DNA of 12,558 nt from a virus, in the IMG/VR virus record IMGVR_UViG_3300045988_106316, positions 1 through 12,558 of that record; one strand, written 5' to 3'. Position 1 is the stretch's first letter; each line of letters starts with the position of its first letter. Both the position numbers and the translations under genes were made by a program. The notes beneath the pieces are model-generated. The model was not told the DNA's origin and ran no database searches. It was given only the letters and a program-made list of their open reading frames with translations. Shown here one piece after another: positions 1,526 to 12,558 of the stretch.

Positions 1526-2290
1526 TTAATATACACCGATACAGAATTTATCAATAAATTCGTTCACGATAATTGAATAGATATCGGTTTGACGCAGGTC
1601 GAGTTCGGCCTCCACCATCCGCTGATTCGTTGTTACGCCGATATTGCCATGAGTATGTATAACAGTATGCCGTGTGTCGCCGCCCGTGTATCCTTTGTTG
1701 CGATTATCGCCGCCCGTGTATCCTTTGTTGCGATCATCGCCGCCCGTGTATCCTTTGTTGCGATCATCGCTGCCCGTGTAGCTGCGCGTATCGTCGCTGT
1801 GGTCTTCGCTGCTGCTGCTGTCGGTAACCTGTAGGTCGCCGCTGTTGTACCCTGTTCGGCTGTTTTGTGTGCTGCCGCTGCTGTTGTTGTTTCCGCTGTC
1901 CGTCAGATTGCGAGTGTAATTATCGTTTTCTTTAAGGTCTCGCGTGTAATTATCGCTTTCTTTAAGGTCTCGCGTGTAATTATCGCTTTCTTTAAGGTCG
2001 CGCGTGTAGTCTTCAAGATGATCTTCGTATCTGTCGGTATTTTCAATTGGGTTATACTCTGCATCGAGTGCCGCTGCAATCCGCGCCCATGCGTTTTGAC
2101 GGCCGTTGCTCCATGCTCCGATAATCACTCGCAAAATATCCGGGTTTGGATATAGTATCTCAAGCTCTGCCGCCTCGCTGATAATCAAATCAATGATTGT
2201 TTGCTGCTGTACGCTATCGGGAAGGTGCAACATCTCAAAAATATTGGGGTCATAATTATACATTCCCAAAATTGACATTGTTGCGGCCAT
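1526..2290 (-). CDS. Lower collar / proximal tail-tube connector-like protein (gp11 position) with internal decapeptide repeats
   Basis: ORF-track ORF 1526..2299 begins with GTG inside the RBS. The ATG at 2290 has GGAGG 8 nt upstream, giving 254 aa; ATGs at 2278 and 2263 are alternative starts. It lies directly after the portal gene, as phi29 gp11 does. The flanks (EYNPIENTDR ... HGNIGVTTNQRMVEAELDLR) fit my unverified recollection of gp11-family conserved blocks. The central part is 4 x (D/N)YTR(D/N)LKE(S/N)D and 4 x KGYTGGD(D/N)RN. Confidence 0.6.
   Translation of the reverse strand: MAATMSILGMYNYDPNIFEMLHLPDSVQQQTIIDLIISEAAELEILYPNPDILRVIIGAWSNGRQNAWARIAAALDAEYNPIENTDRYEDHLEDYTRDLKESDNYTRDLKESDNYTRDLKENDNYTRNLTDSGNNNSSGSTQNSRTGYNSGDLQVTDSSSSEDHSDDTRSYTGSDDRNKGYTGGDDRNKGYTGGDNRNKGYTGGDTRHTVIHTHGNIGVTTNQRMVEAELDLRQTDIYSIIVNEFIDKFCIGVY
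1677..1780 (-). repeat. 30-bp tandem repeat array A (coding, about 3.3 copies)
   Basis: Unit CGCCCGTGTATCCTTTGTTGCGAT(T/C)ATCGC occurs at 1681-1710, 1711-1740 and 1741-1770, with a partial copy at 1771-1780. It encodes the KGYTGGD(D/N)RN repeats of the collar-like protein. Confidence 0.95.
1914..2008 (-). repeat. 30-bp tandem repeat array B (coding, about 3.2 copies)
   Basis: Unit GTGTAATTATCG(T/C)TTTCTTTAAGGTC(T/G)CGC occurs at 1914-1943, 1944-1973 and 1974-2003, with a partial copy from 2004. It encodes the DNYTRDLKES repeats. Confidence 0.95.
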
Positions 2291-3188
2291 CCTCTGCACC
2301 TCCGTTCAGATTTTGTGAGAAGTCAACCCACAATTTACCGTCAAGCTCTGGGAAAAGCTCAACGCATTTCTTCATTCCCGCGCGCATTTCATCGAGCCAC
2401 AATTCGGCTTTGCTGCGCGTGTAGATATCGCCTTTGTTCACCTCGTCGGTAAGCAGGCGCTCCTTTTTACGTACAAGCAAATTGGGAATACCAATTTCAG
2501 CGCGGAACGCTGCTTGCACATTTTGCAAAGCCTCGATTAGGTCGGGCGTGATGAAATTCTGCCCGACATTCTGCGTCAAAAGCTGCATGCCCTGCGAATC
2601 ATCAGGACGCTTTTTGCTGCTTTCGCGGTATACCACAAGCGGAATACCGCTTGCGATCTGGTCATAGCCGGTTTTATACGCTTCGGCCTCGGCTTTGCTT
2701 GTGCTGTATGCGGTATAGGACATATGCGAGTTAAGCACGTTGACGGCTGCGCATTGCCAAATCAGCGCCATCATGTTTCCGTAATTGTCAATGATATCAC
2801 GGATACTGCCGAAATCCGGCTGCACCTTGATAATCTCGCAGTCTTTTCCGATACGCAGTTCGCGCGCCTGCAATAGTGGATTTGCTACAATGGCGCGAGT
2901 AGGCATATAGTAGACATTGCGCCCGGACAGGCTGCACGGCTGCGCGATGATTCCAAACAGGTCTGTTTTGAGTACAGCGACAAAACCGCAACCGATCAGC
3001 CAATATCGAAAGGCGTCTGCATCAATGCTATCAGGCAACGTAAAATCATATACGCTGATAGCATCCTGCAAGAGATACCGCTTGAAAACTCGCGCAATTT
3101 GCGTATCATTGATATGTAGGAAAGACGGATGTATCATACCATCGACAGAGTTTAAAAACTGGTATGTAAACGGTGGATTGTATGCCAT
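2256..3188 (-). CDS. Portal (head-tail connector) protein, phi29 gp10-like
   Basis: The ATG at 3188 overlaps the upstream stop (TGATG), with AAAGGAGTG upstream. This gives 310 aa; phi29 gp10 is about 309 aa. The block IGIPNLLVRKKERLLTDEVNKGD closely resembles the phi29 connector segment as I recall it ([23 protein letters not shown]). The ORF-track start at 3224 adds 12 aa with no RBS. Confidence 0.85.
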   Translation of the reverse strand: MAYNPPFTYQFLNSVDGMIHPSFLHINDTQIARVFKRYLLQDAISVYDFTLPDSIDADAFRYWLIGCGFVAVLKTDLFGIIAQPCSLSGRNVYYMPTRAIVANPLLQARELRIGKDCEIIKVQPDFGSIRDIIDNYGNMMALIWQCAAVNVLNSHMSYTAYSTSKAEAEAYKTGYDQIASGIPLVVYRESSKKRPDDSQGMQLLTQNVGQNFITPDLIEALQNVQAAFRAEIGIPNLLVRKKERLLTDEVNKGDIYTRSKAELWLDEMRAGMKKCVELFPELDGKLWVDFSQNLNGGAEDGRNNVNFGNV

Positions 3189-3811
3189 CAAATCACTCCT
3201 TTCCGAAATTTGAATAATAGCCAAATCGGTAATTTTTTGCCCGGCAATGGCGGCAGTACACCGCCGAAAAACTCATACCATGCCGCCGCCTGTTCGCCGC
3301 GACTTCCCGGCCCCTGCGCGCTGCTGCGCTCGTATTGCCAATAGTACGCTTCGGCCAGTGTTCGCGGATCGTCGGTTGATTTTTTGAATCCCGGCCATGT
3401 GTAGTTGAATCCCTCATTGCTATACCAATCTCGCCCGGTTGTCGCGCTGTACTCATGGAAGAGCATCTGCACATCAATAGCTGATAGCGGGTTGTCATCT
3501 GTTGCAGTTGGCGAGATGCCGAGATTTGTCAACGCCCAATCTCCAATTTTGCGCCCCCATGGGGTCCACTGCGGGAGACCAAAGCCGCCACTGCGTGTTG
3601 TCGGAAAATTTGCTGACGTTGGATAATTGGGATTTAGGCGACACTCGCTTTCCCAGTTTCCCAGCATCGCGCAAGCGCTATTGATCGTAAACCCCAGCGC
3701 GCCCAGATACGCCGCAAAAACGGTTGCGTTTTGCTCCATCTGTGCGCGGTCCGGGTAGACGCGGAACGTGTGGAAATAAGATGCAAAATCAGGAGGCTGG
3801 ATGTCACTCAT
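3188..3811 (-). CDS. Tail-associated peptidoglycan hydrolase (phage tail lysozyme domain, phi29 gp13 N-terminal-domain-like)
   Basis: The ATG at 3811 overlaps the upstream stop (ATGAGTGA), giving 207 aa. LGNWESECRLNPN ... GGFGLPQWTPWGRK ... YYWQYERS matches the Phage_lysozyme2 (PF18013) pattern GN-ES-NP / GxGLxQWT / yER. The ORF-track start at 3964 would overlap the upstream gene by 160 nt. Confidence 0.7.
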   Translation of the reverse strand: MSDIQPPDFASYFHTFRVYPDRAQMEQNATVFAAYLGALGFTINSACAMLGNWESECRLNPNYPTSANFPTTRSGGFGLPQWTPWGRKIGDWALTNLGISPTATDDNPLSAIDVQMLFHEYSATTGRDWYSNEGFNYTWPGFKKSTDDPRTLAEAYYWQYERSSAQGPGSRGEQAAAWYEFFGGVLPPLPGKKLPIWLLFKFRKGVI

Positions 3812-5255
3812 AGTAAAAGCCCCCGCGCAAAAAAGATATAATTGCATCGTGCTCTTCAGCCGTCGCCACGACGTACAGCTCCGGGTTTTGACACATGATA
3901 AACCCGGATAGGCTTTTGATATTACGCACAGCGCACAATGGCCTGCCAGCTCGTGCGTTGTCATTGTCCACCAGGATTGAAAAATCAGCTCTCAAAATAG
4001 GTGGTAGCTGATAGGCCGCAATGCTGCCGGACGCTGACAGCGTTTGCACCGTCGGCGTGCTCGTCGGAACAACCTCATTGATAGCAGCTTGCGCGAAACC
4101 ACTTGCAATATTGCCGTAGTTAGACCAGCTTCGCACGCCTGCTTTAACCGCGCCCATAATGCCCTGTCCCGCTGCCGTGGCAGGTGGAGGCGCCAGAAGC
4201 CCGGTAACACCGCTTGCAATACTGTCAAACATGCTCATTGTAACCTGTGATAGCTGGATATCAACCCCCACCGATGCAGCAGTTCGCAGAATTTCGCTCG
4301 AACCCGCCGAGAAAGTCGAAATGCCGTTACCTGATACACAATCAACCAATGTCGATACAGTGAGCGCTTTAGCGTCGCCGCGGACGAAAAAATCCGGTGC
4401 GATTGCCACATCCCCCCACGGCCCATAGTTATAGGTGAGGCGTGTATAAGGGCTGCCGTTGAGATAGCCCCCGCGCGTCGCTGCCTGCGGGTGCTGCGGA
4501 ACATCCAGCGTCCAAGTGTCTTTGAAAATCGGCGTTTTTGCAAGGCGCTTGCAGTTGACAGGGAGGGTCCACCACCCTACTTTAATTGACGCTTGCAAGT
4601 CTCCCTCTGTCGGCGCAACAAAGGGGAACCATTTACAGCTCACAATATACTGAAATGGGTTAAACAGTGTTTTGGCAAGCTCGCTTGAAATCTCGCTTGA
4701 TGGGATCTGCAAATAATCCGTGTTGATAAATAGTGCATCTCTGAGCGCTGCCATGTATGACTGTGTCAATACATAATAACTTGTACCGCCCCGAGCATTG
4801 TCGTCGCCGTTGATAACACCGATCACATAAGTGCCATCACCCAGGTTTGAGGTCCACGGAAAACTAGCAACCGTCCGGTCCATTGTGATTCCGGCTTTGG
4901 CGCTGTAAAATCCATCGGGCACAAATTCATCGTATTCAGACGCCGAGCGCAATACATATTGCGCTGAATTCCCAATCTCCGTGCGCCAGCTTGCCAGCAC
5001 GTCAACCGCGCAGTCAGCTATCCACAATCCATCTTGCCACGTCCACGATGCGAAATAGTACCGCGACCAAATCGGAATGTGAATATAATTGATCTGTGCT
5101 GGCGTCCAGCCGTCTACCATGTGAAAAACAAGAGACGGCGAAAGAATGCTGCAAACGTCTTTGAGTTCGCAGGCATAAGTCACTCCGTTTGCTGGCTTTG
5201 GTATGGCTGTGCTGTCCGCCTTTTTTGCAAACGAATACAGGATTACATCAAGCAT
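3804..5255 (-). CDS. Tail knob / distal tube protein (gp9-like), structural
   Basis: 483-aa ORF with RBS AAAGGAG upstream, lying directly after the capsid gene. The N-terminal pattern INYIHIPIWSRYYFASWTW...AVDVLASW resembles the phi29 gp9 N-terminal region as I recall it (NYIMFQNPNYSNKWFYAFVT...EIDVIQTW). This is unverified. Confidence 0.5.
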   Translation of the reverse strand: MLDVILYSFAKKADSTAIPKPANGVTYACELKDVCSILSPSLVFHMVDGWTPAQINYIHIPIWSRYYFASWTWQDGLWIADCAVDVLASWRTEIGNSAQYVLRSASEYDEFVPDGFYSAKAGITMDRTVASFPWTSNLGDGTYVIGVINGDDNARGGTSYYVLTQSYMAALRDALFINTDYLQIPSSEISSELAKTLFNPFQYIVSCKWFPFVAPTEGDLQASIKVGWWTLPVNCKRLAKTPIFKDTWTLDVPQHPQAATRGGYLNGSPYTRLTYNYGPWGDVAIAPDFFVRGDAKALTVSTLVDCVSGNGISTFSAGSSEILRTAASVGVDIQLSQVTMSMFDSIASGVTGLLAPPPATAAGQGIMGAVKAGVRSWSNYGNIASGFAQAAINEVVPTSTPTVQTLSASGSIAAYQLPPILRADFSILVDNDNARAGRPLCAVRNIKSLSGFIMCQNPELYVVATAEEHDAIISFLRGGFYYE

Positions 5256-5273: not shown

Positions 5274-6497
5274 TTAGTCGAGCAGGAACACAACGCCGTT
5301 TTCCGTCGTGTCGTTCCAGTAGCGCCGCCAGAAATGCCAGAAAGTATTGTAGTATCTGCCGCGCGCGTTAATCGGGGTCATTTCGACGCCGTCGCCGTCG
5401 TTGACGATACTGTAACCCATAGCCCAGCGATCATACAGGACGCCCAGCATGTAAGGAGCGGATACCGCCGCGCCCTTCACCGCGCTGCCCTCGCTGTTAA
5501 GCATCGTCGGGGTTACGTTGATTCCCGCGCCCTGCTTGACATCCTGCCAGTAGTCAAGCGAATCATGCGGTACGAGCTTCAAGAAGTTTTCATTGAACGT
5601 CCACGGGAGAACCATTTTCTGAATCATATTCTCGAACGGTGCATAGAACAGCATGCGCTGGTCAGCTTTGGGCGTGATGCGAAGGAGCTTTCCGGCGCTC
5701 TCGCCGCCCGCCTGCTGGTGATGCATCACCGTGAGATTGCGCGACATTAGGTCAGATGCCGTCTGGATACGCGCGCAAAGCCAGCCCACAAAATCCGCAA
5801 AATTTTCCGGCTGGAATACCGTTGTAGCCGTAAGCGCCTTCCCCGTGAGAGTGTTATACTCCGTCAGACAATGCACGACATGCACCGGCGAATTATCCGC
5901 ATTTGCTGCTGCGATTTTCGCGCCCGCGAAATTGCAGACCGTACCGTGTCCGAGCGCGGTTTTCTGCTGGTTGATGAGATTCTGCGCTGCCGTGAACTGA
6001 CTGCCCAGCCACTGGCCATATTCAGCAGGCCCGCGCAAAGACATACGCATAGCGTTTGTGTGGATGGAAGGTCCCTGCACGCACCACTGAACAGCCGACG
6101 TGAACGACGTTTCCAGCGTCTGGGGCAGATTCATTTTCCACTGGTCCACGCTCTCGCCGTTCTTCGGTCTGTCCTGCTGCTCGGGGTTTTCCTGCGCGCT
6201 GTCCGGGTCAACAATTGGCGTCAGCTTGCGCACAACAAAACCCCAGTCCACGTCATCCGCATCGAGAAGCGTGATACCGCCCATGTACGGACGAATGGAA
6301 AAAATCGTGCGTGCGATCAGCGCCGTCATGGAGCGGGTCAGCGCGTCAGTACCGCAGGTAAGCCCGCGCTGCGCCAGCGCGACAAACTGCGACGTATCAA
6401 CAGGCGTTTCGAGCGGATTCGCGTTCCTGCCCTGCGCGCCCGCAACGATCGTATTCAAGATTGTTGCAATCTGCGTGAAAGAATAGGGGTTAGCCAT
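5274..6497 (-). CDS. Major capsid protein (phi29 gp8-like HK97-fold core)
   Basis: 407-aa ORF whose ATG overlaps the scaffold stop (TAATG), with GGAGGTGG upstream. The position after the scaffold-like gene fits. The C-terminal LGVLYDRWAMGY...NARGRYYNTFWHFWRRYW resembles the recalled gp8 segment VLVDKDWFMVY...NPRGLYWNYYYHVWQ. Confidence 0.8.
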   Translation of the reverse strand: MANPYSFTQIATILNTIVAGAQGRNANPLETPVDTSQFVALAQRGLTCGTDALTRSMTALIARTIFSIRPYMGGITLLDADDVDWGFVVRKLTPIVDPDSAQENPEQQDRPKNGESVDQWKMNLPQTLETSFTSAVQWCVQGPSIHTNAMRMSLRGPAEYGQWLGSQFTAAQNLINQQKTALGHGTVCNFAGAKIAAANADNSPVHVVHCLTEYNTLTGKALTATTVFQPENFADFVGWLCARIQTASDLMSRNLTVMHHQQAGGESAGKLLRITPKADQRMLFYAPFENMIQKMVLPWTFNENFLKLVPHDSLDYWQDVKQGAGINVTPTMLNSEGSAVKGAAVSAPYMLGVLYDRWAMGYSIVNDGDGVEMTPINARGRYYNTFWHFWRRYWNDTTENGVVFLLD

Positions 6498-6808: not shown

Positions 6809-6947
6809 TTTTCGTTCCTCCTTTCTTCGTCTCGCGGAAAACCTGCATGCTCACGACGTCAAGATCTGCGCCGACTTCCAGCCGCTCGGTCTGAATCGCG
6901 CCGCTTGCGTCTTTGGTCTCGATATCAATATAACTCGTGTAACTCAT
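6795..6947 (-). CDS. Small hypothetical protein (50 aa), not in the ORF track
   Basis: ATG at 6947 is preceded by AAGAGGTGA (the last codons and stop of the endolysin gene) at good spacing. Translation: [50 protein letters not shown]. Its stop overlaps the scaffold start by 14 nt. It fills an otherwise unexplained 143-nt gap in a very compact genome. Confidence 0.5.
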   Translation of the reverse strand: MSYTSYIDIETKDASGAIQTERLEVGADLDVVSMQVFRETKKGGTKNDTV

Positions 6948-6951
6948 TGTA

Positions 6952-7467
6952 TCACCTCTTTTCGATTGCCTCAATCAGTGTGTTAATCTGGTCACGGATA
7001 TCAAGTAAATCCTGCATGATATCGTCGAGCGTCACGCCGTCCGGCTGCGTATCTTCCTCAGGATATGCTACATCATAAACCTTTGCGTGATGTGTCCATC
7101 TGCCGTCACTGATGCTGGACATCTGCACGCCGCCCGTTGTGCTGTGCATCACTTCGCCGTTGCCCAGATACAGCCCTACATGCTTTGCATTGCCCATATC
7201 GTCATGATAACCGCGCGCCACTTCGCCGCCGTCATGCCGCACCGTAAAAACCCATTCGCCCGGCTGAATCGCGGCCATATCGTCCGAGCGATCATAAACA
7301 GCATCGCGCCACATCTGATTACTTCCCCGCCAATTTTTGGAGAGCGCATTGCAGTCTTTGAGCACCTGTTCCACAAACGCCTGACAATCAAGCTGCTTAT
7401 ATGGTGTACCCAGATAGCCGCCAGTGAGAGCGCGATCTACATAAGCATCAGCTTTCACCTTCGCCAA
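6952..7467 (-). CDS. NlpC/P60 (C40) family cell-wall endopeptidase, endolysin
   Basis: Catalytic-type motifs are present: PYKQLDCQAFVEQVL (Cys) and HVGLYLGNGEVMHS (His). The preferred start is TTG at 7467, 7 nt after GGAGGTG and overlapping the end of the upstream small membrane protein gene (171 aa). The ORF-track ATG at 7521 lacks an RBS and would overlap that gene by 74 nt. Confidence 0.8.
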   Translation of the reverse strand: MAKVKADAYVDRALTGGYLGTPYKQLDCQAFVEQVLKDCNALSKNWRGSNQMWRDAVYDRSDDMAAIQPGEWVFTVRHDGGEVARGYHDDMGNAKHVGLYLGNGEVMHSTTGGVQMSSISDGRWTHHAKVYDVAYPEEDTQPDGVTLDDIMQDLLDIRDQINTLIEAIEKR

Positions 7468-7651
7468 TTCTGAGCACCTCCAAGATTCGGCTGAGCGCCT
7501 GCGTGTTGTTGTTAAGTGCATCGGTCATTTTGCTAACTTCCTCTTTGTGCGCATCGTCGCTCAGCCTGCGATCATAGAGCAAGTAGCAGCAGATTGCAAT
7601 AGGGAATCCCATTTGCTGGACAAACTGGACAAAAGTCTGCCAAAATTCCAT
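7448..7651 (-). CDS. Small single-pass membrane protein, YvrJ-like; candidate holin
   Basis: 67 aa, with RBS GGAGGTG 5 nt upstream. The N-terminal hydrophobic segment QQMGFPIAICCYLLY resembles the YvrJ-family core (GFPIVVTFYLL, from memory). The C-terminal tail is charged. It lies immediately upstream of, and overlaps, the endolysin gene. Confidence 0.5.
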   Translation of the reverse strand: MEFWQTFVQFVQQMGFPIAICCYLLYDRRLSDDAHKEEVSKMTDALNNNTQALSRILEVLRIGEGES

Positions 7652-7661
7652 GCTAACACCT

Positions 7662-7749
7662 CCAATAAAAATCAGTCAACCATTTTTGTGCGGATGCCTC
7701 GCGCGCCCCGCCCCTTCTGGGGGCTGCATGTGGGAGATGGTTGACTGTT
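7662..7749 (-). ncRNA. Candidate ~85-nt structured RNA or leader attenuator, closed by an 11-bp helix and a U-tract
   Basis: On the minus strand, CAGTCAACCAT (7747-7737) pairs perfectly with ATGGTTGACTG (7683-7673). The helix encloses a 53-nt GC-rich core with an inner GCCCC-N5-GGGGC hairpin and is followed by ATTTTTATT, then the RBS of the next gene. It starts a few nt downstream of the predicted transcription start of the 7756-7784 promoter. No coding potential. Confidence 0.35.
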
Positions 7750-7755
7750 GATATC

Positions 7756-7784
7756 ATTATATTCTGTTGTTGGAAAAATTGCAA
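7756..7784 (-). promoter_or_regulatory. Near-consensus sigma-A/sigma-70 promoter (late operon and/or small RNA)
   Basis: Minus strand: TTGCAA (7784-7779), 17-nt spacer TTTTTCCAACAACAGAA, TATAAT (7761-7756), with an A/T-rich UP-like tract upstream. It lies in the only sizeable intergenic gap (7652-7798). Confidence 0.65.
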
Positions 7785-7798
7785 TATATATTATAGTA

Positions 7799-8845
7799 TC
7801 ATATCATGCCTAGATAACCACGGAAAATAAGCTCTGTATCGTAACTATCAAACGTCAAATAGTTCTCAAAATATAGCGTTTTCATAAGCCCGTATCGCTT
7901 GCGCCATTGCTCAAGGCCGAACCCCTGCGGGTCATATGCGCGCGTTTTCTGCGCGGCCCTGCAAATATAAAATTCCCGGCGCGATTTGTGGCGATACATG
8001 CCGATTGTGCCAATCGTGCAAAGATATTCAAACTCGATCAGTGGCCGGGATGCAACCCTCGTCGGGTCTACATAAAACGCGTTGTTTATGGCCATTTCAA
8101 TAAAATCCTGCGGCGCGTTTTTGTATAGCCCGGTCTGCATTTTCCGGCGGCTTATCGGACTATCTTGCAATATAATCATTGCCCGGCTCCCATCAGGTGA
8201 GCGATAGATCATCTGTTTACCGCGAATCATTTTAATGGCAGTGCTCATAAAATCCCAACCAATATAATAGGGATTTGCTAGCTGATTGGCATTGCCCAAC
8301 AACAACGCTTTCACAGGCGCGAGGCCCTGCAATTCGCGATTTCTGTTCACTGTTTCATAAAAATCCAAAAACGCCGTGAACTCGTTCGTAAGCGTCCGCT
8401 CAGTCGTGAGCGGAATGTACTCATCAAAAACGATGGTATCAAACCCCGAAAAATCCATGCCGCGGACATTTGCCAACGCTGACAAACTCGTGCCCACGCC
8501 GAGTAGAGCACCATCCGGCGCGATTTTCCCGCGCTTATTCTGTGCGGCCTCGTAAAACGCGACCATATCAGCGGACAGGGAAAACGCCTGCACATTCCAG
8601 CCCATATCCTTGTTGAGTCGTGCAAAGGGGTTGCCCACAGGTGTCCGCGCTTTCAAGATCTGCGTGCCCCAGCGCCTCAACCACACAAATTTTCCGCCGC
8701 CATTGCGTACAATTTCAACCGCGCGCTTTGCGACTCCATATGTTTTTCCAGTGCCACGCGACGACGTGACAGTCACAAAATTAGACGCACTATCCCAAAT
8801 ATAATCAATATTTGGATAGCCATTATCAAGATACAACTTTCCCAT
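7799..8845 (-). CDS. DNA encapsidation (packaging) ATPase, phi29 gp16-like
   Basis: The ATG at 8845 (GGAGGG 9 nt upstream) gives 348 aa; the ORF-track TTG is at 8869. Walker A is SSRGTGKTYG and Walker B is DTIVFDEYI. Blocks match recalled gp16: NFVTVTSSRGTGKTY vs NFVIGARGIGKSY, KFVWLRRW vs QFIYVRRY, ETVNRNRE vs DTVFRNRE, and LGNANQLANPYY vs LSNAVSVVNPYF. Confidence 0.9.
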   Translation of the reverse strand: MGKLYLDNGYPNIDYIWDSASNFVTVTSSRGTGKTYGVAKRAVEIVRNGGGKFVWLRRWGTQILKARTPVGNPFARLNKDMGWNVQAFSLSADMVAFYEAAQNKRGKIAPDGALLGVGTSLSALANVRGMDFSGFDTIVFDEYIPLTTERTLTNEFTAFLDFYETVNRNRELQGLAPVKALLLGNANQLANPYYIGWDFMSTAIKMIRGKQMIYRSPDGSRAMIILQDSPISRRKMQTGLYKNAPQDFIEMAINNAFYVDPTRVASRPLIEFEYLCTIGTIGMYRHKSRREFYICRAAQKTRAYDPQGFGLEQWRKRYGLMKTLYFENYLTFDSYDTELIFRGYLGMI

Positions 8846-11006
8846 TTTGTTTAGCCCTCCAACTTCCAAACAAGTTTATTTTTGTAAGCAGCCGCTCATA
8901 ATCATCAGAATGAGACATTGTATAACTATTCTGCACCATCGCCACATTACGGGTAATGTGTAGATCGTGTCCATCCACTTTAATCCAAAAATCCGCGCTG
9001 TCATTGTAGACTGATATGCTGCCAGCCGCCAACGTCCAGACCATACCGCCCTCCCGCAGCCGTCGGCCTTTTTCATCCTTTTTATAACGCCCGGCTTCAT
9101 CTTGTGCATATCGTCCGGGTTTAAATGCAGGCAAGCCTCCGGCCTCTTTAAGTTCAAGCGCACCCAGCGTCAAACCTGCTGATTTGACTTTTTTTGTGCT
9201 GACACCTGAGACGGTCACTCCAAGTTTGCCATCACGTTCATAAGCATATCGTTTTGCCCCCTGCGTGATAAATCGGTCATAGCCATCCTCCTTGTCAAAA
9301 ACGCCCATATAATACACCTTGCCATTACGATCATGTGCATATGCTCCACAGCGTTTCGCGCGATCAACCAAGCGTGCATTGAGCTGAGACAAATCAATAG
9401 GAGCATCTGTTTTAACACTGTCAGTATCATTATAGACAATGTTGTCTCCCGCGATCTGTATTGCCTCGTGCAGCGCATAGCGCGCCCAAGCGGTCGTGTA
9501 TACACCCCATTGATAGGGGAAATATGCTTTTTCAAGCGCCTGCCGTTTTTCCTCGTCTGTTTTATGCACTGCTTGATAGTCGCCGTCGATAAATTGTATT
9601 GACTCGCGTATCGGGTCTTGCGCACTCATGCCATAGATGCCGTTCAACTTGTTCTTCGATTTCATATACTGGTATTGGCGCTCGTCCGCAGCATCTTCTG
9701 ATTCGCCGTCAGGGCCATTTTTCAACATTGTTTTATCCTGATAATATTTATCTATCACATCAAGATACTGTTTGGGCAGTGGCCCTTTGCGCGCGATCAT
9801 TGCTTCTTCACATGCGATTTTATCCGCGCAATATTGGCGCATAACAACCGCCAAATCGATTTCTGTAAGCGTCGTTGTGCAAAGATCTGCTGACAGCAAT
9901 CGGCCATTGTCAACCACAAAAACGCTGCTTTGCGTTTTTGACAGCGACAAATAGGGCACTGGTTCCCGCTCATTGCGTAAGCGTAAGCCGGAAAACACAT
10001 AGCGCCCGACAACCGCGCGCCCATGCCGGATATAATCAATGATGTTCGCCATTTGTAAATCATCGCCGCTGAGCCAGCGAAATGGGGTAATTGGAAAGTT
10101 TCTTGTTCTCTGCTGCGCGGGATATGCCGACGTTTCGTCATACGATTCGACGTTATCAAGGATTTTTCCCACTTTATAGCGATTTGCATGTGTATCACCG
10201 CCACGAAAAGCCGCCCGAAGCATCGCATACTCCCGTTGATAGGGGAGTATTGATTCGATCTTCCATCTAATCGGCCACAGCGCCGCTTTAGCGTCTCGCC
10301 GTACATAGCCGGTAGACGTGAGGGGCAACGTGTGCAGTGTATCTCCATCGCGTTTCATTTCCGTCTTGATCGCCTCCACAAGGCCCAATACATCGTTAAT
10401 ACAGTATTGCGTCTCATAGTCGGTCAATTCTGACCATGGATAGCGCACAATATCATAATCAAAAGTGTCACCGTCTAGTTTGCGATGCTCGCATTTCATA
10501 ATTTCTGTGAATTTTGATAGACTCATATTGCTATGCATGTAGCTACATCGAAATTCAATACAGCCCAGCATGCGCGCATATATCGGTTTGCGCGCCTCCC
10601 GCAAAAAGACTTCTTCCGGCTGGAATGGATAAAGCCCAGCCAGAAATTGAAATTCATAAGCGAGATTATGTACAAACATCACCAGATAAGGTTTTGTGTC
10701 AAGATTGTTCGATTCCTGCAAAGCCGCACACATTTCATCAACATGGCCGAGAAATGCAAAAAACTCATCCCAATAGCGGCCCATGATAACATCTGAGTTT
10801 ATTGCAACCTGCCACACATACATAAAAGCATGTGGCTCATCCTCGCCGTTCTCCATGCGATGCAAAACCGACGTTTCAATGTCGAAAGCCGCCACCACGT
10901 TGACATATTCCACTCGCTGACTTTTTGCACGCTTTCCGCGTTTTCGCGCTGCTATGCCGCTCTCATAGATACGCTCAAATGGGTAAGTCTCTGCTGTATA
11001 TATCAA
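8826..11006 (-). CDS. Protein-primed family-B DNA polymerase
   Basis: 726 aa. Motifs: Exo I AAFDIETS; Exo II FVHNLAYEFQF (phi29 YFHNLKFDGAF); Exo III QYCINDVLGLVEA; motif A SYDETSAYPAQ (Dx2SLYP); motif B KNKLNGIYGMSA (Kx3NSxYG); motif C IVYNDTDSVKT (YxDTDS); and the KxY-like GAKRYAY. The start must lie upstream of Exo I. TTG at 11006 overlaps the upstream stop (TTGA). Confidence 0.93.
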   Translation of the reverse strand: MIYTAETYPFERIYESGIAARKRGKRAKSQRVEYVNVVAAFDIETSVLHRMENGEDEPHAFMYVWQVAINSDVIMGRYWDEFFAFLGHVDEMCAALQESNNLDTKPYLVMFVHNLAYEFQFLAGLYPFQPEEVFLREARKPIYARMLGCIEFRCSYMHSNMSLSKFTEIMKCEHRKLDGDTFDYDIVRYPWSELTDYETQYCINDVLGLVEAIKTEMKRDGDTLHTLPLTSTGYVRRDAKAALWPIRWKIESILPYQREYAMLRAAFRGGDTHANRYKVGKILDNVESYDETSAYPAQQRTRNFPITPFRWLSGDDLQMANIIDYIRHGRAVVGRYVFSGLRLRNEREPVPYLSLSKTQSSVFVVDNGRLLSADLCTTTLTEIDLAVVMRQYCADKIACEEAMIARKGPLPKQYLDVIDKYYQDKTMLKNGPDGESEDAADERQYQYMKSKNKLNGIYGMSAQDPIRESIQFIDGDYQAVHKTDEEKRQALEKAYFPYQWGVYTTAWARYALHEAIQIAGDNIVYNDTDSVKTDAPIDLSQLNARLVDRAKRCGAYAHDRNGKVYYMGVFDKEDGYDRFITQGAKRYAYERDGKLGVTVSGVSTKKVKSAGLTLGALELKEAGGLPAFKPGRYAQDEAGRYKKDEKGRRLREGGMVWTLAAGSISVYNDSADFWIKVDGHDLHITRNVAMVQNSYTMSHSDDYERLLTKINLFGSWRAKQNGKVVS

Positions 11007-11709: not shown

Positions 11710-11736
11710 AAAAATGAGGCGGCCTAATAGGCCGCC
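11710..11736 (-). terminator. Intrinsic terminator/attenuator between the SSB and terminal-protein genes
   Basis: Minus strand: GGCGGCC, loop TATTA, GGCCGCC, then TCATTTTT, followed immediately by AAGGAGG and the ATG at 11695. It is a near-copy of the hairpin at 55-83. Confidence 0.65.
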
Positions 11737-11742
11737 ATAATA

Positions 11743-12099
11743 TCAACGTTTGCGTCTGTATTGAGACGTGGGCTGCGTATCAGACGGCGAGCGCGACATG
11801 AAATCAAACGTTTCAACATTGACTTCATGTGCATTCACGCGGCATCCGTCCTTATCGGTATAAGTATACAGCCGGATAGAGCCGCACAGCGCGAGCTTAT
11901 CGCCTTTACGGCAATACTTGCCAATGAGTTCAGCCGCGCCACCCCATGCCGTGCAGTGGAAAAAATCAGCCGGGTCATCTTTTTGCCGACCGGGCACTGC
12001 AAGCGTGAATTTTGCCAGTGTGCGAGTTTCGTCTTTAACTTGCACCTCGCGGATTTCAGGATCTGCCGTAAAACGACCTACGATATAAAGCTTATTCAT
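11743..12099 (-). CDS. ssb: Single-stranded DNA-binding protein (bacterial-type OB fold)
   Basis: The ATG at 12099 (GGAGG 6 nt upstream) overlaps the RHH stop (ATGAATAA), giving 118 aa. MNKLYIVGRFTADPEIREV...LAKFTLAV...DFFHCTAWGGAAE...KGDKLALCGSIRLYTYTDKDG fits the PF00436 SSB pattern. The C-terminus is basic (QYRRKR), not the canonical acidic tip. Confidence 0.85.
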   Translation of the reverse strand: MNKLYIVGRFTADPEIREVQVKDETRTLAKFTLAVPGRQKDDPADFFHCTAWGGAAELIGKYCRKGDKLALCGSIRLYTYTDKDGCRVNAHEVNVETFDFMSRSPSDTQPTSQYRRKR

Positions 12100-12311: not shown

Positions 12312-12506
12312 TTAAATATTCGCCCATCGTAACCACCCCCGCAGAATAAGCTCTGCGCTGCCTCCAGTGACTTGAGATAGCGCCTCAGCGCATGCGCTCA
12401 AATCGTGGATGAGATAGAGCTGCGCATAGCCGCAACGCCTCGATCTGACTATGATTGACAGCACTTCCCGGCGGATGAACTCTTGTATCGTTCCAGACTG
12501 ATTCAT
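12312..12506 (-). CDS. Hypothetical early protein (64 aa); start codon and RBS lie within the right ITR
   Basis: The ORF has RBS AGGTG 6 nt upstream of the ATG at 12506. I recognise no motif. Whether it codes is uncertain, because any promoter would have to fit in the terminal ~40 bp. Confidence 0.4.
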   Translation of the reverse strand: MNQSGTIQEFIRREVLSIIVRSRRCGYAQLYLIHDLSACAEALSQVTGGSAELILRGWLRWANI

Positions 12507-12558
12507 GATAACACCTCACTCTTCCACAAATTCCAAATCCCAACCATGGCCGTACATG
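12504..12558. repeat. Right inverted terminal repeat (55 bp)
   Basis: Perfect reverse complement of 1-55. Its inner end carries the RBS (GAGTGAGGTG) and ATG of the first minus-strand ORF (orf64). Confidence 0.95.

Follow-up and report, generated by a model that had tools for sequence, protein, structure and literature searches.

The viral genome IMGVR_UViG_3300045988_106316, whose entire 12,558 bp were analysed (hereafter the window), carries between its packaging-ATPase and lysis genes a non-coding gap that encodes a structured RNA, which we compare here with the prohead RNA (pRNA) of phage phi29. The window ends in perfect 55-bp inverted terminal repeats (1-55 and 12504-12558) and hence, unless these are an assembly artefact, represents a complete linear genome of the protein-primed type. 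All major open reading frames (ORFs) are encoded by the minus strand (hereafter the coding strand). Along it, small early ORFs are followed by the genes for a 230-aa protein in the terminal-protein position, PolB (PF03175) and the gp16-type ATPase (PF05894); beyond the 147-nt gap come those for a 67-aa holin-like protein and an NlpC/P60 lysin, and then those for a phi29-like major capsid protein, a tail lysozyme and a gp10-type connector. Pfam matches among these proteins comprise PF05894, PF05352, PF25622 and PF03175. The profile of the ATPase family covers phi29 gp16 (7jqq) in full length (residues 6-315, E = 8e-18), with an hhalign probability of 99.1%. As it matches the whole of phi29 gp16, we regard the window phage as a small, distant member of the phi29-like supergroup. 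The gap itself (7652-7798) is the longest internal gap between major ORFs, as had been recognised in an earlier reading made without database searches (hereafter the sequence-only reading). Comparison across relatives shows that it encodes a real, strand-specific and conserved structured RNA, with a predicted length of about 85 nt.

The sequence-only reading had described, on the minus strand, a TTGCAA-17 nt-TATAAT promoter, an 11-bp helix around a 53-nt core, an inner GCCCC/GGGGC hairpin, a U-tract and a ribosome-binding site, and all of these lie where it had placed them (Table 1). As the TATAAT hexamer ends 8 nt ahead of the closing helix P1, transcription is predicted to start at about 7749, and, with the promoter immediately upstream, the helix would close the whole transcript. 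The P1 arms enclose 53 nt (7736-7684), of which the two outermost residues, C7736 and A7684, are mismatched in the window and form a U-A pair in relatives of 96-98% identity. The hairpin P4 can be drawn in the register common to the family, with three G-C pairs (7704/7690, 7703/7691 and 7702/7692), or in an alternative one with five pairs and one C-A mismatch. Together, P1 and the U-tract resemble an intrinsic terminator and are a candidate for one; a simple terminator scanner makes no call here because the loop would measure 53 nt. From the end of P1 to the start codon of the holin-like gene, the product of which matches PHROG 4898 (holin; E = 2e-5), there are 21 nt.

Table 1. Features of the gap and its flanks in the window, with the sister-class RNA of two Clostridium phages.
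Feature	Position	Strand	Evidence and remarks
gp16-type DNA encapsidation ATPase gene	7799..8869	-	PF05894, E = 1.5e-12; upstream neighbour of the RNA
-35 hexamer TTGCAA	7779..7784	-	consensus scan; 17-nt spacer to -10
-10 hexamer TATAAT	7756..7761	-	consensus scan; ends 8 nt before P1
Whole predicted RNA, ~85 nt, start to end of U-tract	7664..7749	-	minimum free energy fold, covariance-model match
P1, 5' arm CAGUCAACCAU (DNA letters CAGTCAACCAT)	7737..7747	-	pRNA A-helix equivalent; perfect 11 bp with 7673-7683
P1, 3' arm AUGGUUGACUG (DNA letters ATGGTTGACTG)	7673..7683	-	partner of 7737-7747
P2, 5' strand UCCC	7732..7735	-	pairs with GGGG 7706-7709; pRNA C-helix equivalent
P2, 3' strand GGGG	7706..7709	-	covariation and minimum free energy fold
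One-sided 7-nt bulge ACAUGCA	7725..7731	-	pRNA CE-loop equivalent; AUGC 7726-7729 complementary to P4 loop
P3 hairpin GCCCC-CAGAA-GGGGC	7710..7724	-	loop 7715-7719; pRNA E-hairpin equivalent
P4 hairpin	7688..7704	-	pRNA D-hairpin equivalent; loop with GCAU 7694-7697
A-rich junction strand between P4 and P1	7684..7687	-	alignments; AAAA here, usually A-GAA in relatives
U-rich tract AUUUUUAUU (DNA letters ATTTTTATT)	7664..7672	-	directly 3' of P1
Shine-Dalgarno GGAGG (7659-7663) and ATG (7649-7651) of the 67-aa holin-like gene	7649..7663	-	sequence
Sister-class RNA, CI55P1 (L100, OP172759)	~4764-4870	+	directly upstream of the gp16 gene
Sister-class RNA, CI461P1 (L099)	~9900-10030	-	directly upstream of the gp16 gene

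The 86-nt RNA 7664-7749 folds at -32.4 kcal/mol (z = -3.25, none of 200 shuffles being as stable), and its minimum free energy (MFE) structure is a three-way junction. It is this delimited RNA that stands out, whereas a longer 121-nt segment, 7640-7760, is no better than its shuffles (z = -0.44). The closing helix and the inner hairpin of the sequence-only reading are real; P4, the three-way junction and the complementary sequences of bulge and P4 loop had escaped it. For comparison, 80 IMG/VR loci were fetched with the ATPase as anchor, the encoded ATPases being 33-98% identical to that of the window. Twenty diverse members yielded a gapless seed alignment of 67 columns, from which a covariance model was built without the tertiary pair described below. 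In the window this model has a sole match, 7677-7743(-), with 56.9 bits and E = 2e-12; overall it produced 76 matches in 83 sources, never more than one per source, with all matches in the fetched loci on the ATPase strand and that of the window on the coding strand.

A common design was found even in loci with 33-38% ATPase identity, accompanied by little identity in sequence. It consists of P1, which is of arbitrary sequence; P2, of 4-5 bp; a 7-nt bulge on the 5' side only; P3, of 4-5 bp with a C-N-G-A-A loop; the return strand of P2; a linker of 0-1 nt; P4, the loop of which has about 7 nt; 4-5 A-rich nucleotides; and the return strand of P1. Between the P1 arms, the core spans 51 nt in most members (51-53 nt overall), while P1 ranges from 8 to 19 bp. 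Pairing holds for 93.7% of cells in the seed and falls to 33-39% in a control with partners slid by 1-3 columns; double changes occur in 22 of 27 pairs. The picture holds for 57 distinct sequences aligned by the covariance model (91.7% of cells paired, 35-43% when slid), which display compensatory changes in P1, P2, P3 and P4 alike: P1 is paired in 97.7% of cells, with all eight modelled pairs covarying through 4-5 pair types each; P2 in 95%, with compensatory changes in five of five pairs; and P3 in 99.6%, again with compensatory changes, such as C-G to U-A in locus L008. Four of the five P4 columns pair well and covary. The P3 loop shows little or no departure from the pattern C-N-G-A-A with a subsequent G. 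Folded individually, five divergent members adopt the same topology, four of them with z of -3.2 to -7.0 and the fifth, from the Amedibacillus phage AD70P2, with z = -1.8.

Cells with G-U outnumber those with A-C by 64 to 27, and hence the structure belongs to the transcribed strand. A cruciform or origin acting at the DNA level is disfavoured by this asymmetry and by the orientation of the promoter. Two small ORFs that run across the gap, 7653-7784(-) of 43 aa and 7547-7744(+) of 65 aa, were also rejected as genes, since the relatives vary by paired compensatory substitutions and indels and not in a codon pattern. Thus, covariation in relatives extends from the closing helix, for which the sequence-only reading had raised the possibility, to all the helices, and also to the tertiary pair.

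This tertiary pair joins the one-sided bulge to the P4 loop, AUGC (7729-7726) being complementary to GCAU (7697-7694) in the window. The bulge is complementary to the P4 loop in every lineage although the sequences differ, with about 20 distinct pairs in all, including AUGC/GCAU (window), GUGC/GCAC, AGUCA/UGACU, GGUCA/UGACC, GACCA/UGGUC, GAGC/GCUC, GUAUCA/UGAUAC, UCGCC/GGCGA and CGC/GCG. The three central bulge/loop pairs, in columns left unmodelled by the covariance model, each show four pair types and few unpaired cells. In a test independent of register, the mean complementary run was 4.03 nt, against 2.45 +/- 0.12 for re-paired bulges and loops, and none of 2000 permutations reached 4.03. 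Moreover, the pair evolves fast: among RNAs that are near-identical elsewhere, 21% of kissing positions are changed as against 7.6% of inner-helix positions, an approximately threefold excess. In the comparison of loci L031 and L041, none of 28 inner-helix and none of 15 other unpaired positions differ, while six of eight kissing positions do, with complementarity preserved. Together with L043, these loci (RNAs at ~3558-3626) have identical helices and other loops, and differing, still complementary kissing pairs (AGUCA/UGACU, GACCA/UGGUC and GGUCA/UGACC), which looks like a switching of partner specificity. Such fast, concerted change of bulge and loop is the outcome expected from selection on partner specificity.

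The nearest cultured relatives of the window phage are the Amedibacillus phages AD70P2 and AD70P3 (Guelinviridae), with about 29% ATPase identity; the Clostridium phages CI55P1 and CI461P1, which stem from human faeces and sewage, are more distant. A blastn search with window positions 6900-9000 against 50,697 phage records returned no match. In AD70P2 (locus L086, OP172638), an A+U-rich RNA of the window type lies at ~6402-6470 (-), between the ATPase gene and an 89-aa gene; it has P2 UUGC/GCAA, the bulge AUAUCCAA, P3 UAGUG-UCGAA-CACUA and P4 AGU-AGGGAU-ACU, with AUCC in the bulge complementary to GGAU in the loop. Both covariance models that we used, R1 and R2, miss this RNA, the architecture of which was recognised by eye, in the MFE fold and in a scan with a topology descriptor, a single rule set that recognises phi29, window and AD70P2 RNAs as positive controls. 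On phi29, the best score of model R1 was 8.1 bits, which is chance level.

In the window and most relatives the RNA lies directly downstream of the ATPase gene. One group (L009-L027, 42-46% ATPase identity) has one extra gene between the two; this gene encodes a protein of ~130-250 aa with a conserved N-terminus (MELTRVEIFKAMN...), and the clade is the closest to the window by ATPase identity. In another clade (L089-L097) the RNA is about 8 kb from the ATPase gene and on the other strand. There, as at L092 12673-12741 (-) and the same site in L089, L094, L096 and L097, the early module with the ATPase is inverted relative to the late module, and the RNA keeps its promoter, U-tract and holin-like gene. 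Since its placement with respect to the ATPase gene changes, it is the RNA, together with its own promoter, that is conserved. For the same reason, adjacency to the gp16-like gene, from which the sequence-only reading had argued for a pRNA, is a weak argument; that option draws its strength instead from the topology, the covarying bulge/loop pair, the full-length gp16 homologue and a sister class of RNAs described below.

A TTGACA / 16-18 nt / TATAAT-like promoter stands just before P1 in nearly all loci examined, and among 55 distinct relatives a -10 box (at least five of six positions) ends 0-13 nt, mostly 7-8 nt, ahead of P1 in 45. In the window as a whole, sigma-70-like promoter matches on both strands number 43, as against 18.2 +/- 3.8 in dinucleotide shuffles (2.4x). 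At least five U among the first nine nucleotides after P1 were found in 28 of the 55 relatives, the others being U-poor, and in 50 of them the next start codon follows P1 at 15-34 nt. The downstream gene in nearly all loci examined codes for a small membrane protein with a GFPI motif and heads the lysis/structural block; in AD70P2, L030 and L045 it is not a holin gene, and the RNA architecture is retained. A discrete RNA with paired ends, the limits of which are predicted, would agree with the promoter at 0-13 nt before P1 and the U-rich stretch behind it. A place at the 5' end of a transcription unit suits equally well an independent small-RNA gene, as under the A1 promoter of phi29, and a leader of the late operon.

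Model R2, representing the window class, finds no window-type RNA in the Clostridium phages CI55P1 and CI461P1. In these phages, the interval from the polymerase gene to the ATPase gene instead holds a structured element of some 107 nt, with a long 5'/3' helix, a three-way junction and a 6-nt one-sided bulge, AUACCA, complementary to the loop CUGGUAA. This sister-class RNA was also found upstream of the ATPase gene in loci L130-L185, and thirteen close relatives have compensatory changes in its helices. We scanned the 280 nt upstream of the ATPase gene in 80 loci with CI55P1-related ATPases for the topology descriptor, by folding from fixed starts, since local folding missed known positives where upstream sequence competes with the real 5' end. 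The pattern occurs in 21 loci in sense, 14 of them with at least 4 bp of bulge/loop complementarity, against two loci and none, respectively, in the antisense control. Here, too, the pair differs by lineage (AACCA/UGGUU, ACCA/UGGU, GUCA/UGAC, AAUCA/UGAUU, AUCA/UGAU, CACUA/UAGUG and UAUCA/UGAUA). The sister class has the junction layout of phi29, with a U-rich strand between the C and D helices and none between D and A; its A helix has a proximal part of 8-9 bp, a conserved UUUAA bulge on the 5' strand and then a distal part. These RNAs measure about 115 nt in all, with a TATAAT some 6 nt ahead of the distal helix and a U-tract behind it. Both RF00044, the Rfam model of phage pRNA, and model R2 miss them.

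The two classes thus share their setting in gut and rumen phi29-like phages with homologous ATPases, their topology, the covarying bulge/loop pair, the promoter-proximal position, the U-tract behind and the single copy per genome, and the E loop of the sister class contains GAAG. The sister class differs in its phi29 junction layout, its long bulged A helix, a C helix of 8-11 bp and its position upstream of the ATPase gene, whereas the RNAs of the window class are shorter, with an unbulged A-helix equivalent, and precede the holin-like gene. Whole-genome descriptor scans returned a single such RNA on the coding strand of the window, that in the gap, and likewise a single one on that of CI55P1. 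Complete genomes have one RNA class or the other, which is the strongest argument that both would do the same job, namely that of pRNA.

The pRNA of phi29 (120 nt), whose type occurs in phi29 and related Bacillus phages of the Salasmaviridae, has in its MFE fold the order A helix (in which the two ends of the RNA pair, and which has a CCA bulge), C helix, a one-sided bulge of 9 nt on the 5' strand containing AACC, E hairpin, C return, UUU, D hairpin (with GGUU in its loop) and A return. The order of elements is the same in the window RNA: an end-paired helix, a three-way junction, a 5'-bulged arm with a hairpin and a second hairpin. In both, the loop of the second hairpin is Watson-Crick complementary to the bulge over 3-6 bp, by a pair that covaries between phages, and the primary sequence is highly variable while the structure is conserved. 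Both come from small protein-primed podoviruses with a gp16 ATPase and a gp10-type connector, and both have a strong sigma-A-type promoter and a U-tract behind, here predicted. Hence, we posit that the RNA of the window is probably a compact prohead or packaging RNA that is at the same time the 5' end of the late transcript. Its architecture, a kissing pair that covaries and evolves fast, the phage's genes of the phi29 type, the single copy, the mutual exclusivity of the two classes and the frame of promoter and U-tract all point, at the level of sequence comparison, in this direction and make it the likeliest account.

Under this proposal the RNA would be transcribed from the sigma-A-type promoter at 7784-7756, starting at the base of P1, and would be the functional counterpart of the phi29 prohead RNA. 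Copies joined head to tail by intermolecular AUGC/GCAU pairing would form a ring at the prohead's portal vertex, with the region of the conserved pentaloop touching the capsid or connector and P1 pointing outward as a docking site for the gp16-like ATPase. P1 and the U-tract would release part of the transcripts as free RNA, and in transcripts that read through, the RNA would constitute the 5' leader of the holin, endolysin and structural block. While the structure, conservation and distribution of the RNA emerge from comparison, we infer its oligomerisation, prohead binding and role in packaging; as regards the ring, the fast concerted change of bulge and loop and the geometry of the junction offer indirect hints of intermolecular pairing.

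Window-type RNAs also depart from phi29-type pRNA in several respects. They are shorter (~75-95 against 117-174 nt), their C helix has 4-5 instead of ~9-10 bp, their E loop is a conserved CNGAA pentaloop unlike that of phi29, and the RNA is placed at the head of the late operon and not at the genome end. Several further points weigh against a role as pRNA. The A helix of phi29 has ~26 bp with an essential CCA bulge ~8 bp from the junction, whereas P1 has 8-19 bp and no conserved bulge, and the junction is made up here of 0-1 nt between C and D plus 4-5 A-rich nucleotides between D and A, as opposed to three (UUU) plus none in phi29. RF00044 (Phage_pRNA), which scores 145.4 bits on the phi29 control, has no match in the window even at E <= 10. 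The connector of the window (2256-3224 (-)) is short of 30-odd residues at the N-terminus in comparison with phi29 gp10, among them the basic RKR segment implicated in pRNA binding, and no basic cluster is present at its own N-terminus. Lysines K236 and K239 of gp16, reported as pRNA contacts (PMC7672431), align with I and E in a low-confidence stretch of the hhalign alignment, and among K236, K239, F240 and W254 the aromatics alone are kept. The bulge/loop pair could be an intramolecular pseudoknot. Finally, the RNA is physically the 5' leader of the late genes, as only 15-34 nt separate it from the start codon and no other promoter fits between. As RF00044 misses it, we treat the window RNA as sharing the architecture of pRNA and not as a demonstrated member of that Rfam family; the idea of a match to the phi29 model or to known leader families, raised with the sequence-only reading, was not borne out, for none of the 4227 models of Rfam 15 reached its gathering score in the whole window or E <= 10 in 7600-7850.

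The physical continuity with the late genes lends some credence to a purely cis-acting alternative, which we consider possible but rather doubtful, wherein the RNA is the 5' leader of the late (lysis and structural) operon and its three-way junction contains an intramolecular pseudoknot. Such a leader could bind a phage or host factor or the RNA polymerase and thereby govern read-through of the terminator made of its own P1 and U-tract, through attenuation or through processive antitermination of the HK022 put type, or else it could protect the 5' end of the mRNA from decay. The consensus promoter directly before the RNA in nearly all loci, with the start predicted at the base of P1, the short distance to the next start codon, the frequent U-rich tract after P1, and the order promoter, RNA, small membrane protein, held even where the ATPase gene lies on the other strand, are all as this alternative would have it. 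Fremin et al. 2023 (PMC10690425), in the passage dealing with structured RNAs upstream of Podovirus_gp16, likewise take these as possible cis-regulators. However, the fast, concerted change of the kissing pair is unexpected for a neutral intramolecular pseudoknot, and the architecture stays the same although the downstream gene varies, being other than a holin gene in AD70P2, L030 and L045 and, in the sister class, that of the ATPase. Nor is there a conserved alternative pairing or expression platform, the core being locked in P2-P4 with nothing upstream of P1 to compete. The attenuator or antitermination switch of the sequence-only reading hence survives in so far as the RNA lies within the 5' untranslated region of late genes, and fails for want of conserved, mutually exclusive pairings. 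Its more specific suggestion, that AUCUCC might alternatively pair with the Shine-Dalgarno sequence, has to be abandoned: AUCUCC is the 5' strand of P2, which differs by clade (UUGCAC, UGUCC, GGCC), with neither an alternative pairing nor sequestration of the Shine-Dalgarno sequence conserved.

The put RNAs of HK022 comprise two simple stem-loops and are not known to have an end-closing helix, a covarying tertiary pair or a directly following U-tract. The window RNA is akin to them as a structured RNA at the extreme 5' end of a long phage operon, right after the promoter, and is unlike them in possessing all three of these features and in having no Rfam match; the simplicity of the put RNAs thus speaks against a leader of that type. 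The packaging and leader roles are compatible with each other and not exclusive.

Less probable still, and in our view improbable, is a trans-acting structured small RNA with a role other than packaging, e.g., the sequestration of a host protein or binding of a phage protein, the fold of which is merely shared with pRNA. Three-way junctions with tertiary pairs between loop and bulge do recur in unrelated RNAs, such as the tetrahydrofolate (THF) riboswitch and the hammerhead ribozyme, and both the dissimilarity to RF00044 in sequence and covariance model and the non-conservation of the protein residues that contact pRNA in phi29 would be accommodated by it. Yet, such a role would leave unaccounted for the restriction of the RNA to phages with a gp16-type ATPase at one copy per genome and its mutual exclusivity with a clearly phi29-like class in sister phages, and no Rfam family at E <= 10 points to another known RNA. 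A plain intrinsic terminator of the early (terminal protein-polymerase-ATPase) operon beside the late promoter, with incidental inner structure, is hardly credible: the perfect 11-bp helix followed by AUUUUUAUU at the early/late boundary of the window genome does resemble intrinsic terminators, in which a U-rich tract comes immediately after a helix containing G+C, and to this extent the terminator option of the sequence-only reading stands, but the promoter is upstream of the helix and not downstream, about half of the relatives are without a good U-tract, and the supposed loop is a conserved branched structure of 51-53 nt with three more helices, a conserved CNGAA loop, a tertiary pair and compensatory changes down to 33% ATPase identity.

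Two observations on the window genome lie outside the RNA. The ATPase ORF as listed begins with TTG and encodes 356 aa, and a 99% identical database protein has 348 aa; from the latter, the true start is likely the ATG at 8845, with a shorter overlap with the polymerase gene. Positions 46-81 and 11710-11745 form an inverted pair, 89% complementary, that share a G+C-rich hairpin (GGCGGCC...GGCCGCC) followed by a T-run, one copy being just inside the left end and the other between the small early ORFs and the 230-aa gene; these look like terminators reused at two sites.

In reviews, pRNA is known solely from phi29 and related Bacillus phages (PMC5066667, PMC11476376). A survey of 2025 based on Infernal added 12 pRNAs from phages with names of the Bacillus type, the genomes of which have gp10 and gp16 homologues (PMC12670572), the description of Clostridium perfringens podoviruses noted the gp16 homologue and did not report a pRNA (PMC3362512), and a pRNA-like RNA has been reported in archaeal ampullaviruses, as mentioned in PMC7672431. 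An automated survey of IMG/VR speaks of 'six csRNAs consistently upstream of Podovirus_gp16' as possible cis-regulators, in a passage that draws no link to pRNA (Fremin et al. 2023, PMC10690425). The sister class may be these six csRNAs, and the motif of the window may be present among the anonymous csRNA candidates of the same survey. We found no published description of the window class or the sister class as pRNA.

More broadly, we propose that RNA-dependent packaging motors are the rule for phages with a gp16-type ATPase, including hundreds of gut and rumen Firmicutes podoviruses of 12-19 kb, and that the window RNA represents a pRNA reduced to a minimum of ~70-90 nt, the three-way junction of which is rewired and which doubles as the 5' end of the late operon and as a partial terminator; this generalisation we think stands an even chance of being right. 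It is directly testable, as the cultured phages AD70P2/P3 and CI55P1/CI461P1 carry these RNAs. Were the RNA a leader instead, the structured regulatory RNAs of phages would still gain a class that is new and widespread. If the proposal is true, the supply of motor RNA would be coupled to late transcription, and the sole known RNA-containing DNA-packaging motor would be extended across a whole viral supergroup. It would also provide a natural minimal pRNA, with a 51-nt core and a short helix, and dozens of natural orthogonal kissing pairs for RNA nanotechnology. Moreover, these RNAs bear on the origin of pRNA, namely whether it is ancient or was acquired late.

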